From a virus (lineage: Duplodnaviria > Caudoviricetes): 64,000 nucleotides of DNA. The first letter of the stretch is position 1, and every line of letters begins with the position of its first letter. Under the pieces are notes generated by a model. That model was not told where the DNA came from and did no database searches. It saw nothing but the letters and a program-made list of their open reading frames with translations. The stretch lies in IMG/VR virus record IMGVR_UViG_3300032266_000589. One strand, written 5' to 3'. The position numbers and the translations under genes were made by a program. Below, piece after piece: positions 12,603 through 60,409 of this stretch.

Positions 12603-13553
12603 TTATGGGTTATTTTGGATAATTACGCCAGTGGATGGTATTACACCGCTAGCATTACCAAATATCACAAGGTCATTTACTGCGGCATCAACGAATGAGC
12701 CAGCAGTATTAAGAACTTGGAAAGTGATATAATCCTTGTCTCTTTCAACAATACCAACGGTATTGTTAGAAAAATCTTCGCCACTATCATTATCGCTTCT
12801 AGCGTTACTTGTGGCAACTGCAACATAATTACCATCAGCAAAGGTATTGGGTTTAAAGAAAATCTTGAACTTGCCGGGACTTGTTGGACCAAGTGGGCGT
12901 TGTAGTTTGGCAATATTATATGAAGATAACACTTCCATGTTGCCCGAACCATTAAATCTAATCCAAGCTTGCGCTGACCCCTTGGCTGTTGGCATCATGC
13001 TGTTATCAACATCAAACTTTACAGTTGTGCCACTACCAACATGCATAATTTCTTCATCAGCATCTACATATTGGAAAGAAATACCATGCATCCTATTGGT
13101 CATTGATACGCCGCTGGCATTGATCCAATGGTTTGGGCCACCCATTCCTAGGTTTGCGTCCATATTCCTAGTACCAATAAGGTTGAGGTATTGAGTATGT
13201 GGATCGCCCAGCGTCAGACCAGCTAAACCATTATGCACAATACCGGTAGAGCCGGGGTAAGGCTCAACTTGAATACCATTATTTCCAATAACATTGGCAA
13301 ACTGTATGCCAGATTCAACAATGAGAGTACCACCCTCCACATTGGTTGGATCAGAGTCGTTTAGTTTTACTCTAACATCTTTTGCGAAGGGATGAACAGC
13401 ATCAAAATCACCACTGGCAACAATGTACTTTAAAGACTCAATAATATCCACCATATTCTGCCTAACGTCTCTGGCAGAAATAAGACCTGCGTTATTATCA
13501 GCTAGGTCTGTTTGAATATTGTTTCTGATAATCTGATCATTTAAAACGGTCAT
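12603..13553 (-). CDS. Virion structural protein
   Basis: 316 aa; the N-terminal DNNAGLISARDVRQNMVDII is paralogous to 23138..26515; HxGL..L..xDPHTQY and AQAWIRFNG fibre-type motifs. Confidence 0.7.
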   Translation of the reverse strand: MTVLNDQIIRNNIQTDLADNNAGLISARDVRQNMVDIIESLKYIVASGDFDAVHPFAKDVRVKLNDSDPTNVEGGTLIVESGIQFANVIGNNGIQVEPYPGSTGIVHNGLAGLTLGDPHTQYLNLIGTRNMDANLGMGGPNHWINASGVSMTNRMHGISFQYVDADEEIMHVGSGTTVKFDVDNSMMPTAKGSAQAWIRFNGSGNMEVLSSYNIAKLQRPLGPTSPGKFKIFFKPNTFADGNYVAVATSNARSDNDSGEDFSNNTVGIVERDKDYITFQVLNTAGSFVDAAVNDLVIFGNASGVIPSTGVIIQNNP

Positions 13554-40295: not shown

Positions 40296-40893
40296 GGTGG
40301 TATAAGAGAACGATAGAGAAAAGGATAAGAAAATGGAAACGATTAAGATTACGCAAAACACTTCAGCAGTTGTCAACAATGGAAAGGTGATCTACTTGAT
40401 TCAGAATGGAATCAAGACTCAAGACCCTCTCAAGGTAAGATATTTTCAGAGAATGATCTAAGCCTCTTGACACCATCCAGCCGATACTATAATGTAAAGA
40501 GAAGAACTGGATACACTAACTAAGAGAAAAAACATGTTCTCAAAAATTGAATATGCTATGGTGTGGGTAATGGGTGCTTTCCTAACTGTTATGGAAACTC
40601 TGTGTGAGGTATGGCAGCGTTTTAAGGAATATGATGAGATGAGAGCAAGGGGCTATACTCTCATGAAGAATGATAAAGGGGATGATTTCTGGGTAGGATA
40701 CGGTGATTAACAATAAGAGGTGCAAGGATGTACAGCGTAGACTTCGTAAGTGTGACTCTTGGATATATCGTAGGTGTAGCATTGTGCTATACCACCATGA
40801 AAATGATCTATGAATTAGAAAGCCATAACAATGACGAATGAACAGATGTATATCATGTGGGGCTTCTCATTCTTTCTTGGTTGCCTTGCGACG

Positions 40894-40971
40894 TATCTCC
40901 TTACTGCATAAGGGTTTACGACGCGGGCGGCGGGCCACGTTTGATGTAAGTCTTTATATAGCAACACTTTA
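40894..40971. repeat. Paired-palindrome element copy 2
   Basis: TATCT-N15-GTTTA, 28-bp G-rich spacer, TAAGT-N15-CTTTA. Confidence 0.85.
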
Positions 40972-40985
40972 CGTTCACTGACTTA

Positions 40986-41000
40986 GCAAACGGTGTGCCA
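40986..41000 (-). promoter_or_regulatory. sigma54 -24/-12 site TGGCACACCGTTTGC
   Basis: Exact TGGCAC-N5-TTGC on the minus strand, 14 bp from box B. Confidence 0.7.
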
Positions 41001-41131
41001 ATAGGGAGGAAAATCGTGATTTCTTTTGTCAAAATCTCTTGACACAAAAATCTCTAGATTGTGCTTGCAAGTTCAAGAATCTCTGGTATAATGTCGATAT
41101 AAGAGTAAGACAGAAAGAAAGAGAAAAGAAA

Positions 41132-41446
41132 ATGAAAAACAAGTTCCCCATCGTCGAAAAAGCCAAGCGTCAAGCCCGTATGTGTTTCCTTGGAATCGCC
41201 ATTCCCACCGCTGTCAAGAGCATCGATGGTGAAATGGTTCAGGTCGAAAAGGTAATCAAGTTCAATCGTACTGCCCTGAAGAACATGGGCAAGAGTAAGA
41301 CCGATAGTGTCGATCCGCGATACGTTGGCGGTGAAGATAAGATGCGGTTCAAGGTTGGAAAGCCGGGAAGTGCTGAACGTGTTGAAGCACTTATCGCACA
41401 GTATGCTAGTCTCTCTGAAGAAGAAATGTCACCCTTTGAGGATTGA
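41132..41446 (+). CDS. Hypothetical early protein
   Basis: 104 aa from ATG 41132 after a promoter; PGS.ER...L..QY motif. Confidence 0.75.
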   Translation: MKNKFPIVEKAKRQARMCFLGIAIPTAVKSIDGEMVQVEKVIKFNRTALKNMGKSKTDSVDPRYVGGEDKMRFKVGKPGSAERVEALIAQYASLSEEEMSPFED

Positions 41447-41637
41447 AAGATGGATACGTTAACATTAAAAGAAGTTGTAAAGATGGCCCGTGAGAATGAT
41501 TTGCATATTCTTATCAAGTCTGAGGGATATGCGTTGTGTGATGATAGTTTCAAAACGCTATTAATCACAAACAGTCTGCGTAACATGGTGTGGTATATTA
41601 ACAACTGCGAAATTCTTGGAATCATAAAGGTATAAAC

Positions 41638-41877
41638 ATGAGCAAGTACAACGGCTGTGCAAACTATCAAACTTGGAATATAAAGCTGTGGATCGCTAAT
41701 GATGAGGGGCTTTATAACTTTGCAAAAGGTTGTGATGATTATGCAGAATTTGTTCAAGGTATGAGAGAAGATGGATATTTTGAAACTGCGGATAATGTAG
41801 CGTGGAATGATAGCGGGATCGACCTTGACGAAATGAAAGAATTTTGGGACGATAATTTTTCTGAAGTTGAGGCTTGA
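41638..41877 (+). CDS. Hypothetical acidic protein
   Basis: YNG.ANY.TWN..LWI.NDEGLY conserved-looking phage motif. Confidence 0.75.
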   Translation: MSKYNGCANYQTWNIKLWIANDEGLYNFAKGCDDYAEFVQGMREDGYFETADNVAWNDSGIDLDEMKEFWDDNFSEVEA

Positions 41878-41942
41878 CAAGTGCCGATAAGTATGGTAGA
41901 CTGTTGTAAGTGTTTTTCAATTAGCAAAAGAGGTGTTTAAGT

Positions 41943-42332
41943 ATGAGTGATTATGTTGTGTTGTGTGCTGTTGTGTTCTTTCTGTTTTGCACGATGATCT
42001 ATTGTGTGTATCGCGGAGTGTACGGTTCGCTATCTTCAGCGAATCTTGGTGAAGTTTACAACTTTCACTATCTCCAGCCTCTCACGGGAGAGTACGAGCG
42101 TTATCTTGCCAAGGTAATCTCAAAGCGTGATATGAAAGAGCAGATTGGATATCTGAATGCTACGAGTAATTATCGTAGATATGATAGCCAGTTTGAGCGT
42201 AGTAACACGCTGGTAACTTGCGAATTGTCAAACGGTGAAATTCGTAACTTTTACGCTGAACGTGTGAGAGATTGCTACCGTTCGATTTTCGGTAGACTAT
42301 TGTACAGTACGGGCATGGCCTGTATGTTCTAA
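41943..42332 (+). CDS. Membrane-anchored WYL/SH3-like protein
   Basis: N-terminal hydrophobic helix; F.Y....GE.ER...V...GEIRNFY.ERV resembles WYL. Confidence 0.55.
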   Translation: MSDYVVLCAVVFFLFCTMIYCVYRGVYGSLSSANLGEVYNFHYLQPLTGEYERYLAKVISKRDMKEQIGYLNATSNYRRYDSQFERSNTLVTCELSNGEIRNFYAERVRDCYRSIFGRLLYSTGMACMF

Positions 42333-42351
42333 GAACGTGCGACACTCGCTC

Positions 42352-42429
42352 TAAGTCTATATCCCACAAGGACTTAGGGCGAATCGCCGCCGCCCCGCGA
42401 AGCGTAAGTCCTTTGCTGGCATACACTTA
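42352..42429. repeat. Paired-palindrome element copy 3 (spacer inverted)
   Basis: TAAGT-N15-ACTTA twice; C-rich 28-bp spacer. Confidence 0.88.
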
Positions 42430-42443
42430 CGTCAAGTCACGAC

Positions 42444-42458
42444 GCAAAAGCTGTGCCA
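42444..42458 (-). promoter_or_regulatory. sigma54 -24/-12 site TGGCACAGCTTTTGC
   Basis: Exact consensus, 14 bp from box B. Confidence 0.7.
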
Positions 42459-42747
42459 CAAATATTTTGAAAATTCTCTGAAGATTTTGCTTGACACGGG
42501 CCGATATATATTGTAGAATGAATTACACAAGGAGAAAAGAGATGACGATTGAAGAAATGAATTACCGTATCGTGAGCCTTCGGATGGACATGGATAACTA
42601 TCGTGCGGCTCGTCAGTTTGGAAAAGTTTCTGAGTTGCGTTTGGAAATCGCCCGCATTGAGGGCGTGATCCGCGAAAAAAATAATCTCAAGTAGGGCTTG
42701 ACAACGGTCGATCTAAGGTATAGAATTCATCACACAAGGAGAAACCC

Positions 42748-42918
42748 ATGAGCTACGATTTTGCGAACGATCTTCTGAACGATCTGGCCGCGTTGGGCAT
42801 TGTTTCCGATCCGATGGTCGAGCCGATTGACGATCCCTCTTACAATGTAGATTTTTGGGATTGGGCGGATGTGGTGGGCGTTGTTGACGAATTCATTCCA
42901 GAGGAGTATACTGTGTAA
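42748..42918 (+). CDS. Small acidic protein (56 aa)
   Basis: AAGGAG SD after a promoter; MSYDFANDLLNDL...DEFIPEEYTV, hand-translated. Confidence 0.65.
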   Translation: MSYDFANDLLNDLAALGIVSDPMVEPIDDPSYNVDFWDWADVVGVVDEFIPEEYTV

Positions 42919-42983
42919 TATGGCGTTCATTCTAATTTGCATTTTCTTTCTTTACCTTACCTGCACACTTGAGGACTAATAAC

Positions 42984-43235
42984 ATGAGCCACCCTGACCC
43001 GTTGTTCGATGCCGATAACTCTTACGAGGATGATGACATGGAAATCCATGATGATACTGCTGATGCTCTCTATGACGATTATCACGATTACCATGACGAT
43101 AGTATGGATGGTGATCATGATTCCGCGATGACTTCCTGCGGATGGGGAACGGATGAGGATTATGGACACTTTTGCGACGATGAGGCTTACGGTTTTTATG
43201 GTGATGATTACGACTATATTGGAGATAACTTTTGA
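42984..43235 (+). CDS. Extremely Asp-rich small protein
   Basis: GAGGA SD; DGDHDSA..SCGWGTDEDYG motif. Confidence 0.75.
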   Translation: MSHPDPLFDADNSYEDDDMEIHDDTADALYDDYHDYHDDSMDGDHDSAMTSCGWGTDEDYGHFCDDEAYGFYGDDYDYIGDNF

Positions 43236-43396
43236 CTGAAGAAGAAAAGCGTATTGAAGAATATAACAAATTCATGGATGAGTGGGCAAAGCGTCCAACT
43301 AATCGTGAGTTGTATGGTAACGGATGTTATCGTCCAGATGAAGTAGCGTTGACTGATGAAGAATATGAAATGTTTGGTTAATACAAAGGAAATAAT

Positions 43397-43624
43397 ATGA
43401 AACTTGGATATCAAAAGTTTGTAGAGTTTGATAACGGTTATTCCGCGAGCATTGTATCTAATGATATGAGCTACGGTAGTGATCGTGGACTATTTGAGAT
43501 TGCTATCCTGCATGGTAGTGAGATCGTATACGATACGGATATTGCTCACGGTGTAGTCGGCTTTCTTGATTTTCAAGATGTAGCAGACACACTCAAGAAA
43601 ATTGAGCAACTTCCGAAACGTTAG
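43397..43624 (+). CDS. Hypothetical protein
   Basis: F.NGY.AS.V....SYG...GLFEIA.L phage motif; AAGGA SD. Confidence 0.8.
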   Translation: MKLGYQKFVEFDNGYSASIVSNDMSYGSDRGLFEIAILHGSEIVYDTDIAHGVVGFLDFQDVADTLKKIEQLPKR

Positions 43625-43627
43625 ACG

Positions 43628-43705
43628 TAAACCCTTGTGAGATAAGGACTTACGACGCGGCGGGCGGGGAAAATTTGTCATAAGTCGTTTACTACCATAT
43701 ACTTA
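43628..43705. repeat. Paired-palindrome element copy 4
   Basis: TAAAC-N15-ACTTA, 28 bp, TAAGT-N15-ACTTA. Confidence 0.88.
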
Positions 43706-43853
43706 CGACGAGTTTTTGTCTAAAGAAAGTGCTTGACAGGTGACGATAACTATGGTACACTAGGTGTAGGAGGATAGAATATGGATGATAGAGAATATAT
43801 ACAACCTGAACAAGATACGATAGACTTTCTGGTTTACGCGGAATATATAAACT

Positions 43854-43952
43854 GGCAACTTAGGCAGATTGGGCAAGATGTGAGAAATGAGATAGATGGG
43901 ATGAGTGCGTAAGATAGGTAATCTAGGTAAGATGGGCAAGCTGGGGAAGTCT
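43854..43952 (+). repeat. Degenerate 9-bp tandem array (11 units, approximately GGYAAKMTR)
   Basis: ggcaactta ggcagattg ggcaagatg ... ggtaatcta ggtaagatg ggcaagctg. Confidence 0.7.
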
Positions 43953-44179
43953 CTGCCTATCTAAGCGGGTCATGTGTTTTTCGCCATAGTCAGCCAAAAG
44001 GAGATTTTATGAAGAATGTGCATGTTTATGATATTAAGACTGAGGATGGTCAATCGTTGATGGATTTGATTATTCCTGTGGATATTGATGCAACGTGGAT
44101 GGATGTGTTTGAGAAGGTTCAGGGAGCATATCTTGACAACGTAGACAGCTATAGCTATACTGAGGTGTAGCCAACAATC

Positions 44180-44252
44180 GGGGGTGTAACTTAGCGACTA
44201 AAGTAGCGGTCTTTTAAACCGTTTATCGTGGGTTTGAGTCCCACCGCCCCCA
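44180..44252 (+). tRNA. tRNA-Lys(TTT)
   Basis: Full cloverleaf; anticodon loop CTTTTAA; D-loop has GA and the T-loop is TTTGAGT. Confidence 0.9.
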
Positions 44253-44304
44253 TTTCGTGTATAATAGAGTAGATGATCACTAACCTTCTACTCTAGGAGT
44301 AATT

Positions 44305-44715
44305 ATGCACAGTAAGAGAAAAGGAAATATAGGCCAATTCGCGGTTGGTCTAGCTTTAACTAAACTTGGATATTCTGTATTCACTGAAGAGGGAGATATA
44401 TCTAAGATAGATATTATAGCTGAGAAGGATGGTAAACTATTAAGGTTTCAGTCTAAAGCTATAACGCCAACAGATAACAAGCTACAGCTACATTTAAAAA
44501 AGAGTGGCCCAAACTATAAATTCACTTATCAGCAAGGAGTATTTGATTACTTTGCTATATACGATTTAGAGGATGGGAATATCTATCTAGTTCCAGATTC
44601 AGTATTGTCAGAAAATAGCCATACTTTTAGTTTGAGAAAAATTCAATCAAAGAATAATCAAACGTCTGGTGTGCATATGGCATCGGACTACTTGATAGAA
44701 AAAATGCTATCTTGA
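44305..44715 (+). CDS. PD-(D/E)xK endonuclease (I-Ssp6803I-like homing endonuclease type)
   Basis: K.KG.IG...V...L...GY.VF......KIDII....G...R.QSK...Y....FDYFA.Y. Confidence 0.8.
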   Translation: MHSKRKGNIGQFAVGLALTKLGYSVFTEEGDISKIDIIAEKDGKLLRFQSKAITPTDNKLQLHLKKSGPNYKFTYQQGVFDYFAIYDLEDGNIYLVPDSVLSENSHTFSLRKIQSKNNQTSGVHMASDYLIEKMLS

Positions 44716-44784
44716 CATTCATAAGGATTGTGAGTATAATATGAGGATGAGGCGTATCCACAAATATCAACTAAGGAGTGATTT

Positions 44785-45039
44785 ATGTCATGGAGAGATG
44801 AGTTCTTCTTCTATAAGGGCTACAATTGTAGAATCGAACATGATTATGAGGAAGATAATGTTAAAGCATGGCATATTGTCGTTGATCAATCTGGTAAAGA
44901 AACTACTGCGGATATAACCCCATATGATAGTTCTCCTGAAGTGGTACGTTTGTGGATTGATGCTGGTATGCCTAAACGTATTGGTAGTGGCCCACTACGC
45001 AGAGAAGATTTGGAGAAGATGATCTATGAGCGAGCCTAA
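44785..45039 (+). CDS. Hypothetical protein
   Basis: TAAGGAG SD after a TTGACA/TATAAT promoter. Confidence 0.75.
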   Translation: MSWRDEFFFYKGYNCRIEHDYEEDNVKAWHIVVDQSGKETTADITPYDSSPEVVRLWIDAGMPKRIGSGPLRREDLEKMIYERA

Positions 45040-45181
45040 TGTCTATTATATCTATAACGAATATGTATTGGGCGACGTAGATTATTATGAGGATATCTAT
45101 GAAGAAATTATTGAGTATGATGACTCTGATGAGTGGTACAATATTGACGAAGCGGAGGCTGATGTTTGAGCGACGATGGAT

Positions 45182-45253
45182 GCCGACATAGCTCAATGGT
45201 AGAGCCACTGATTTGTAATCAGTAGGTTACAGGTTCAAGTCCTGTTGTCGGCT
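45182..45253 (+). tRNA. tRNA-Thr(TGT)
   Basis: Canonical cloverleaf, anticodon loop TTTGTAA. Confidence 0.93.
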
Positions 45254-45254
45254 C

Positions 45255-45325
45255 TCCGGGATGGTGAAACGGTATCACAAAGGATTTTGGTTCCTTTTTT
45301 CTACGTTCGAATCGTAGTCCCGGAA
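45255..45325 (+). tRNA. tRNA-Gln(TTG)
   Basis: TCCGGGA/TCCCGGA acceptor stem, anticodon loop TTTTGGT. Confidence 0.92.
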
Positions 45326-45329
45326 CTAT

Positions 45330-45401
45330 ACATAGGTAGCATAATGGTAATGCCCCAAACTGTTAATTTGTCAGATGTAGGTTCGACTCCTACCCTATGT
45401 G
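45330..45401 (+). tRNA. tRNA-Asn(GTT)
   Basis: ACATAGG/CCTATGT acceptor stem, anticodon loop CTGTTAA. Confidence 0.88.
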
Positions 45402-45405
45402 TTTT

Positions 45406-45478
45406 GGCCCTATCGTCTAGTGGACTAGGACACCACCCTTTCACGGTGGATACTGGAGTTCGAATCTCCATAGGGTCA
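45406..45478 (+). tRNA. tRNA-Glu(TTC)
   Basis: Canonical cloverleaf, anticodon loop CTTTCAC. Confidence 0.93.
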
Positions 45479-45556
45479 TAACTCTATATCTGACAAGTGT
45501 TTAGGACATGCGGGGCGGGCCGCGTTTTTCATAAGTCCTTATCTACCAACACTTTA
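45479..45556. repeat. Paired-palindrome element copy 5
   Basis: TAACT-N15-GTTTA, 28 bp, TAAGT-N15-CTTTA; abuts tRNA-Glu. Confidence 0.85.
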
Positions 45557-45571
45557 CGACAAATTTCTCTA

Positions 45572-45586
45572 GCAAATACCATGCCA
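45572..45586 (-). promoter_or_regulatory. sigma54 -24/-12 site TGGCATGGTATTTGC
   Basis: TGGCAT-N5-TTGC, 15 bp from box B. Confidence 0.65.
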
Positions 45587-45659
45587 GAGATTTTTCTAAA
45601 GATTTCTCTTGACGTTGACGATCTATATGGTATGATGAGTAGACACAAGGGAGACAATT

Positions 45660-46373
45660 ATGCAATTCAGTAAGGGTAACGAGAAGTTGGGTGACGGGTG
45701 CTTGGTTGTGAGTCGTGCTGTGGGCGATACTTGCCCATCATCGTGCGATTTCTTGGGTAACGGCTGTTATGCTGAGAACACTGAGAATATCTTTAAGAAT
45801 AGCCGAGCGGTTGGATTGCGGAATATGATTACAGAGAAGAATCTTATTCGTGCTATGATCGTGGAAGCTATTAAGAAAGAAGTTGCTATCCGTTGGCATG
45901 AACGGGGCGATTTCTTTAAGAATGGTGAACTAGACTGCGAATATGTTGACAATATCGTATGGGCTTGTGAGAGTCTATTGTCTGAGGGTAAAGAATTGCC
46001 AGAGATGTGGGTCTACTCTCATATCTATGATAGTCGTATTGTAAATCAACTTTCTAAGTATATGGTGGTATATGCTAGCGTACACAATAGCGATCATAAA
46101 GAAGCAGCAAGCAACGCCGGTTTCAAATACTTCGCATGGTGCGACACGGATAATGTCTATAGTCCAAAGAAGCCAAGAGGCAAGGCAAAAGTCGAAGCAT
46201 GGCGAAAAGCCTTGCCGAAACTAGCTATCATCGACAACGAGCGGTATATCACTTGCCCCGAGATGCGGCGTGGTCGTCAGGCTGGTGGTGTCACTTGCAC
46301 TGGCACGAAAGATAGTGTAGAATGTAATCTGTGCGTCAAGGGTTTGGCTAATGTTTTGTTTCTCAACCACTAA
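45660..46373 (+). CDS. Gp88-like (radical-SAM-like) protein
   Basis: N.KLG, TCP..C......CYA, IRWHE.GDF, CP.....C..C.LC motifs. Confidence 0.75.
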   Translation: MQFSKGNEKLGDGCLVVSRAVGDTCPSSCDFLGNGCYAENTENIFKNSRAVGLRNMITEKNLIRAMIVEAIKKEVAIRWHERGDFFKNGELDCEYVDNIVWACESLLSEGKELPEMWVYSHIYDSRIVNQLSKYMVVYASVHNSDHKEAASNAGFKYFAWCDTDNVYSPKKPRGKAKVEAWRKALPKLAIIDNERYITCPEMRRGRQAGGVTCTGTKDSVECNLCVKGLANVLFLNH

Positions 46374-47231: not shown

Positions 47232-47319
47232 GAACAAATTTTGAGAAAGCCTAAAGTCCTATCCGTAGAGTGTCGATAAGTAGTGTATGGACAGGAAGTG
47301 TGTAAAAAGGAGTGGAGAG

Positions 47320-53275: not shown

Positions 53276-53403
53276 TAAGTCCGTTGCCCATAAGGGTTTA
53301 CGGCGGGCGGGGGCGGCGAAATTTGATATAAATACTTATCCCATAAGGGTTTACATCAAGTCTAATAGCAAGTGAACGTAAGTCGTTTGTTCTCAAGTAC
53401 TTG
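53276..53403. repeat. Paired-palindrome element copy 9 plus a third box
   Basis: Boxes 53276-53300 and 53329-53353 are 28 bp apart; an extra box lies at 53379-53403. Confidence 0.85.
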
Positions 53404-60235: not shown

Positions 60236-60409
60236 AAGTTTAAAAGAAGATCGCGGTAATCTTGCAGTAAATATAATGTTGGGTATTTTTTACAGTTGGC
60301 TTATATTACTTCCTCTTGGGATATGGAAAATAATTGATTTGCTGCTCTACATTTTCTAAAGAAAAGTCTTGACACTTGACGATTGATAGAGTATGATTGA
60401 GATGTAAGC

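Follow-up and report, generated by a model that had tools for sequence, protein, structure and literature searches.

Sigma-54-type promoter sequences, mostly in antisense orientation, in an early-control slot of a lake phage lineage

We analysed a 64,000-nucleotide (nt) part of the genome of a divergent uncultured lake phage (IMGVR_UViG_3300032266_000589), referred to here as the window. A twin-palindrome boundary element (box A, then a GC-rich spacer, then box B) is repeated about nine times in its early region and divides it into cassettes. At three of the nine, a minus-strand sequence of the form TGGCAY-N5-TTGC, the -24/-12 pattern of promoters recognized by sigma-54 (RpoN), lies in the short slot that separates box B from the -35 hexamer of the following sigma70-type early promoter. 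The pattern recurs with strict spacing in the early regions of related phages. Judging from their sequence and position, we consider it somewhat probable that these boxes are genuine sites for the host sigma-54 holoenzyme, forming an optional module poised back-to-back with the early promoter.

Results

Three sigma-54-type boxes in the window

The three boxes are as follows.

40986..41000, minus strand: sigma-54-type -24/-12 box 1, TGGCAC-N5-TTGC followed by T, predicted start at about 40974
42444..42458, minus strand: sigma-54-type box 2, TGGCAC-N5-TTGC, predicted start at about 42432
45572..45586, minus strand: sigma-54-type box 3, TGGCAT-N5-TTGC followed by T, predicted start at about 45560

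An earlier note on this DNA had reported three such sequences, and both their coordinates and their strand were confirmed exactly. In each box the GG and GC doublets are exactly ten bases apart, as sigma-54 promoters require. The note gave distances of 14, 14 and 15 nt to box B. Counted from the terminal G of the palindrome (40973, 42431 and 45558) they are 12, 12 and 13 nt, and the former values result when the end of box B is placed two bases further in. Its proposal that transcription would start next to box B agrees with our mapping in the window; with the C of GC as -12, the predicted starts correspond to the first base outside box B. As also noted earlier, the ninth copy of the boundary element keeps only GCAA (53368-53371), 12 nt after its palindrome, without TGCCA. 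On the promoter side, box 1 is separated from the -35 hexamer (41065) by 64 nt, box 2 (42491) by 32 nt and box 3 (45609) by 22 nt. The 15-mer of box 2 was found again in three relatives (G004, G006 and G014). An inverted repeat of 5 bp (TCTCT..AGAGA, 45566-45590) surrounds box 3, and repeats of this type could have mediated inversion of the module between relatives.

Enrichment, spacing and consensus of the boxes

Exact TGGCAY-N5-TTGC was present four times in the window, compared to a mean of 0.36 in 100 shuffles, none of which reached four. The remaining match (13297-13311, minus strand) is located within a late gene and probably arose by chance. Using the protein of the gene at 45660, we collected 26 related loci, and the whole records behind 25 of them were searched with the pattern. 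We found 73 matches against 4 for the reversed pattern, an 18-fold difference. The matches were clustered in the early region of each relative (for example, G016 has nine in 5.5 kb and G003 seven in 6 kb), with one to nine boxes per genome.

Spacing and consensus were examined in a pool of the window and 19 early-region stretches, 257 kb in total. Only the N5 spacing was enriched, with 70 matches, and each of the other spacings from N1 to N10 gave zero to two. Among the 58 distinct sites, the unconstrained base following TGGCAY was a purine in every case, a T preceded TTGC in 53, a T or A followed TTGC in 48, and a T preceded TGGCA in 44. The boxes nevertheless comprised 36 different 15-mers, their variable bases changing freely. 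Sites with one mismatch were also in excess (71 versus 14 in the control), and the mismatches were rare at the GG and GC bases.

We compared these positions with sites bound by sigma-54 in Escherichia coli, as determined by chromatin immunoprecipitation with sequencing (ChIP-seq; PMC4591121). Every conserved position of the boxes agrees with the experimentally bound sites, and the same purine is found in 36 of the 42 intergenic sense sites, as counted from Table 1 of that study. The strict pattern is present in only 11 of these 42 sites, and on this basis the phage boxes can be described as consensus grade; those in the window are nearer to the consensus than most of the 42. The excess in the window and in the relatives and the exclusive N5 spacing uphold the earlier claim that the sites are real sigma-54-type sequences, and support the view that the boxes are a selected motif and not the product of chance.

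Slot, orientation and distances in related phages

Nearly all boxes in the relatives share the slot seen in the window. The earlier note had named a lack of positional conservation as a refutation. Conservation was found, in that the boxes of the relatives keep to the slot that is bounded by box B and the early promoter. The exact boxes in the relatives were antisense in 45 cases and sense in 16, and 9 had no nearby promoter, numbers that include some redundancy from near-identical phages. The gap between box and box B fell into classes of 7-8 and 12-13 nt, sometimes 25-38 nt, and the gap sequences are homologous among copies. The boxes had been described as aimed precisely at the boundary element. 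This is valid in the window, where the predicted start abuts box B, but about a quarter of the boxes in relatives face forwards, the gap varies, and the boxes are not tied to a gene. When the slot preceding the homologue of the 45660 gene was aligned, the box appeared as an optional insert of 20-34 bp that seven of the aligned relatives lack.

Measured from the end of TGGCA to the -35 hexamer, the distances of the antisense boxes cluster at 21-23, 32-33, 42-44, 55-56 and 63-66 nt, and the window boxes, at 22, 32 and 64 nt, follow the same classes. The distances are suggestive of a ladder with steps of about 10.5 bp, about one helical turn.

Some modules depart from this layout. In a more distant relative (G020; L077 3489-3651), a small Cys-rich open reading frame (ORF) follows a sense box at about 42 nt, counting from where the box is predicted to start transcription, and no sigma70 promoter was seen between the two; some boxes therefore look like ordinary promoters. 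Three GCAAAATGC repeats are located 85-150 nt upstream of this box, where an enhancer would be expected. In G013 (L065 2850-3950), both boundary palindromes are replaced by CTGCCAAAATGGCAGG palindromes, which themselves contain TGCCA..TGGCA, and the antisense boxes are retained, among them a tandem of two boxes 27 nt apart. One module type (L059 2654-2740, L066 2647 and 6215) carries a lone forward TTGGCAYR without TTGC, 16 nt after the antisense box, giving an inverted TGCCA..TGGCA.

A convergent pair of boxes in unrelated viral contigs

Five of the related records contain overlapping convergent pairs of boxes, in which TGGCAYR..TTTGC is followed after 4-5 nt by GCAAA..YRTGCCA. This convergent pair was present in at least 120 unrelated viral contigs, whereas the reversed control matched 1 and the divergent arrangement 50. 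Among the matches listed, the loci ranged from 30 to 68% in GC content and held 569 boxes against 7 in the control, the unconstrained purine was kept, and the gap within the pairs varied (N4 in 71, N5 in 29, N6 in 24 and N3 in 21). Because the motif is common to unrelated phages of very different composition, a universal host protein is indicated as its reader rather than a family-specific one. Of the proteins conserved in this way among hosts, sigma-54 is the one known to recognize precisely this sequence, and it offers the best explanation of the results. As the gap varies, a rigid dimeric regulator fits poorly.

The boxes in unrelated phages were not associated with sigma70-like promoters (7% versus 3% at random positions), indicating that the back-to-back layout is a feature of the present phage family. 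The direction of solitary boxes in unrelated phages relative to the next ORF was uninformative (0.66 versus 0.52). In several short viral contigs (L087, L090, L095, L151, L156, L123 and others), the convergent pair is situated within 100-500 nt of a contig end, which may represent genome ends or assembly breaks at repeats.

Antisense transcription

One of the two roles proposed in the earlier note was that the boundary element is transcribed as a family of antisense small RNAs. This found no support. No minus-strand terminator follows the three boundary elements, and the antisense strand did not fold better than the sense strand or shuffled sequences, the z-scores being -1.3, -3.3 and +0.2 for antisense and -1.1, -4.0 and -1.4 for sense. 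A structured antisense RNA was rejected on these grounds.

Sigma factors, activators and the host

The search for an rpoN or AAA+ activator gene recommended in the earlier note was run on related records, eight for sigma-54 and nine for the activator, including the fragment G001, and neither was found; G001, the nearest record, covers the late region only. A weak PF00158 hit was examined and turned out to be a RuvB homologue, PF00158 being unspecific and matching all 14 control genomes. The large relatives encode a full RuvB homologue (L027 814-1719 in G002; RuvB_N, E = 4.5e-47). The sigma70-family factor of the phage itself (38567-39094) was considered as the reader of the boxes and rejected; the two halves of the box are only 11 bp apart from centre to centre, and such a factor cannot read them given the established geometry of its promoters.

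Comparisons of Gmd, RuvB, psbA and cyanobacterial genomes did not identify the host. The phage Gmd is 44-49% identical to proteins from genomes of every phylum and the RuvB-like proteins belong mostly to viral clusters, neither giving a clue to the host, and no psbA was found. When 20 kb of the window was compared with 401 cyanobacterial genomes, homology was confined to gmd and a methyltransferase and one low-complexity 30-mer outside any array of clustered regularly interspaced short palindromic repeats (CRISPR), and there was no CRISPR match. Searches of phage DNA in GenBank gave tRNA matches only. The large terminase is about 26% identical to those of Bacillus and Microcystis phages. Some bacterial groups are devoid of sigma-54. 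There was no match to Sigma54_DBD in the Nostoc genome tested, and at a tighter cut-off 4 of the 14 control genomes matched, Synechococcus not among them. On the other hand, the sigma28-like elements of the early promoters described below are an indirect hint of a flagellated host, and flagellated bacteria usually have sigma-54.

Layout of the window

Late and structural genes occupy the minus strand up to about 40 kb, including the large terminase, a Clp protease and the sigma70-family factor. From 40.25 kb onwards, tRNAs and small early genes are on the plus strand, preceded by a large number of strong sigma70-type promoters. The elements neighbouring the boxes are listed below.

40893..40973: twin-palindrome boundary element before box 1, with box A at 40893-40919, a GC-rich spacer and box B at 40946-40973 (repeat families D3 and D12)
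42351..42431: twin-palindrome boundary element before box 2, with box B at 42404-42431 (repeat families D6 and D8)
45479..45558: twin-palindrome boundary element before box 3, with box B at 45531-45558 (repeat family D3)
41065..41092, plus strand: sigma70-type early promoter back-to-back with box 1, TTGCAA-16-TATAAT with a TG extension
42491..42519, plus strand: sigma70-type early promoter back-to-back with box 2, TTGACA-17-TAGAAT, with GCCGATAT in its spacer resembling a sigma28 -10 element
45609..45636, plus strand: sigma70-type early promoter back-to-back with box 3, TTGACG-16-TATGAT with a TG extension, overlapped by a sigma28-like TAAAG..GACGATC
41026..41044: palindrome TTGTCAAAATCTCTTGACA, resembling an operator and located between box 1 and the early promoter

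The GC-rich part of the boundary element of box 3 doubles as a plus-strand terminator-like hairpin with a T run (45508-45525). The 19-mer TTGTCAAAATCTCTTGACA begins 40 nt after the start of the box in each relative inspected (L060, L061, L073 and L075).

Discussion

The poised-promoter reading

The motif, its enrichment, spacing, slot and distance ladder are observed; from these we infer that sigma-54 binds the boxes and that its complex there is silent, and any antisense RNA is equally a matter of inference. The sigma-54 holoenzyme forms a stable silent closed complex and starts transcription only with an AAA+ activator (PMC4591121), and a silent polymerase would thus be the default state. 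We propose that in this group of lake phages a module has been inserted between the boundary element and the next early promoter, and that in the default state a silent sigma-54 polymerase would sit back-to-back with the sigma70(/sigma28)-type promoter. By arithmetic from the mapped positions, the predicted starts of the two promoters are separated by 83, 94 and 125 bp. Firing by a host activator would initiate transcription right beside box B, and the polymerase would then cross the boundary element in the backward direction and enter the upstream cassette at its 3' end. A switch composed of the sigma-54 site and the early promoter, the second role put forward in the earlier note, is plausible, and sigma-54 sites beside sigma70 promoters have been proposed to repress or activate the latter (Samuels et al., PMC3844500).

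A number of observations weigh against this reading. The three boxes of the window run opposite to the early genes, pointing away from the nearest gene and heading none, and the absence of a terminator or a strand-specific fold downstream of them has been described above, as have the negative results on rpoN, the activator and the host. We did not recognize a conserved enhancer near the boxes. Both orientations are seen in the slot before the 45660 homologue, the window and L023/L025 having the box antisense and L008/L018/L019 having it sense. Nor is the box tied to the downstream gene: of the 19 homologue matches found for the 41132 gene, only 2 are preceded by a box at up to 260 nt, and both boxes are sense. 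The -12 parts of the convergent pair are too close for two holoenzymes at once. Finally, the distance ladder is based on about five module types that share ancestry, and its statistics are weak.

Alternative readers and roles

A serious rival to the poised-promoter reading, possible in our view but not probable, is that the boxes bind sigma-54 or its holoenzyme and make no RNA, serving as a sink as copies of the phage DNA accumulate or as a bulky mark of the early region. Only their presence and number would then matter, which would accommodate both orientations and the overlapping pairs, the movement of boxes between slots and genes, and the range of one to nine boxes per genome, all in the early region. 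The failure to find an activator in related records, the consensus-grade boxes with a T run before GC, and the binding of E. coli sigma-54 sites in an inactive state (PMC4591121) are also in accordance with it. Against it, the window has only three slot sites in 64 kb, one per slot, and not a dense array in gene-free DNA, and the fixed slot, the orientation bias of about 3:1 and the distance ladder suggest a local and directional role. Moreover, boxes in unrelated phages are not tied to sigma70-like promoters, so that no single general rule is apparent.

It is rather unlikely that the reader is another phage or host protein with a sigma-54-like site, for instance a regulator that binds in tandem, recognizing TGGCA and TTGCT at a distance of one helical turn and controlling the adjacent early promoter. 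The boxes do lie 22 to 64 nt before the -35 hexamer, the usual region of upstream-binding activators, and at distances that follow the ladder. The additional lone TTGGCAYR in some modules, the TGCCA..TGGCA within the G013 palindromes and the resemblance of the convergent pair to a dimer site would fit such a protein. It is difficult to reconcile with the extended motif, including its unfixed positions, in at least 120 unrelated contigs of 30-68% GC, which a family-specific protein cannot explain. The variable gap within the pairs is unlike a rigid dimer site, and all conserved positions coincide with those of experimentally bound sigma-54 sites. That the boxes are functionless scars, hitch-hiking on recombination that shuffles promoter modules among these phages, would account for the optional insert, the short repeats flanking copy 3 and the homologous gap sequences, but is very improbable in view of a purine at position 7 in 58 of 58 and T before TTGC in 53 of 58 sites across 36 different 15-mers, the strict N5 spacing, the 18-fold enrichment over the control in relatives and the recurrence of the motif in unrelated phages.

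Comparison with known sigma-54 systems

The sigma-54 promoters of E. coli hypA, glnAp2 and pspA display the same TGGCAC-N5-TTGCW with fixed spacing. Unlike these, the window boxes face away from the nearest gene, and neither an activator gene nor a recognizable enhancer was found. By every sequence criterion the boxes agree with sigma-54 promoters, and they differ in heading no gene. The prevailing view is that phages depend on the main sigma factor of the host for early transcription, and to our knowledge the use of sigma-54 is documented for very few phages. The comment in the earlier note that sigma-54 use by a lytic phage would be unusual is thus fitting, in that such use is rare yet known. 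The virulent Pseudomonas phage YuA is described as using sigma70-like and sigma-54-like host promoters (Ceyssens et al. 2008, as cited in PMC10914365). In the account given there, one promoter region (P015) of YuA is linked to a sigma-54-like promoter, whereas here there are several boxes, mostly antisense and each with a sigma70-type promoter.

Good sigma-54 motifs in the 'wrong' orientation, both intergenic and intragenic, are known from ChIP studies in E. coli and Salmonella (PMC4591121, PMC3844500), where they are bound as inactive holoenzyme. Roles proposed for such antisense sites include interference, antisense RNA and the modulation of an adjacent sigma70 promoter (PMC4591121, PMC3844500). 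Unlike them, the phage boxes are consensus grade, lie in one regulatory slot and recur across a lineage, and for these reasons selection is much clearer in the phage.

Divergent pairs of sigma70 and sigma-54 promoters, with starts about 80-150 bp apart and arranged back-to-back, are found at pspF-pspA, zraP-zraSR and hyc-hyp. In the bacterial pairs each of the two promoters drives a gene and the activator sites are situated in the intervening DNA, whereas the sigma-54 side of the phage arrangement heads no gene. The zraP/zraS and hycA/hypA sites are listed among the bound E. coli sigma-54 sites (PMC4591121). Control of small RNAs linked to sigma-54 has been described for glmY/glmZ, whose promoter architectures were analysed (PMC3045617), and for NrsZ (PMC4253122). 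These RNAs have defined ends, in contrast to the phage boxes, which are followed by no terminator or conserved fold. Our literature searches turned up neither a phage lineage that carries a conserved sigma-54 module in mostly antisense orientation nor a convergent sigma-54 pair.

The results indicate that the large freshwater phages of an entire lineage keep consensus-grade, mostly backward sigma-54-type sites in a fixed early-control slot. If sigma-54 polymerase docks there, these phages would provide a tractable case for what the silent and antisense sites of the bacterial ChIP studies do, and sigma-54 would be a host factor commonly exploited by phages. As a tentative extension, the early regions may be wired to three forms of host polymerase, with the composite sigma70/sigma28 promoter, the optional ladder-spaced sigma-54 site and the protein-read boundary element forming a switch that reads the sigma-factor state of the host (for example, flagellar or stress). 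Separately, the convergent pair might be a general signal in phage DNA beyond ordinary promoter use.

Apparently composite early promoters and the phage sigma factor

Early promoters of composite appearance, in which a sigma28/FliA-type TAAAG..N..(G/T)NCGATA overlaps the sigma70 hexamers, are present at 42491-42519, 45597-45636, 47252-47278, 43721-43748 and 60357-60384. The pattern occurs five times on the plus strand and is absent from the minus strand, compared to once per strand for the control. The CGAT in the promoter spacer, with TAAAG upstream, is invariant in 10 of 10 aligned relatives (alignment A1), and the two elements fit the sigma28/FliA consensus TAAA-N15/16-GCCGATA overlapping sigma70 elements. 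The site at 47252 is without TTGACA and, from its sequence, may be a sigma28-only promoter. The sigma70-family factor of the phage (38567-39094, minus strand; Sigma70_r2, E = 1e-6) is located at the border of the late and early regions, and its homologues in G002-G005 are found at the same border.

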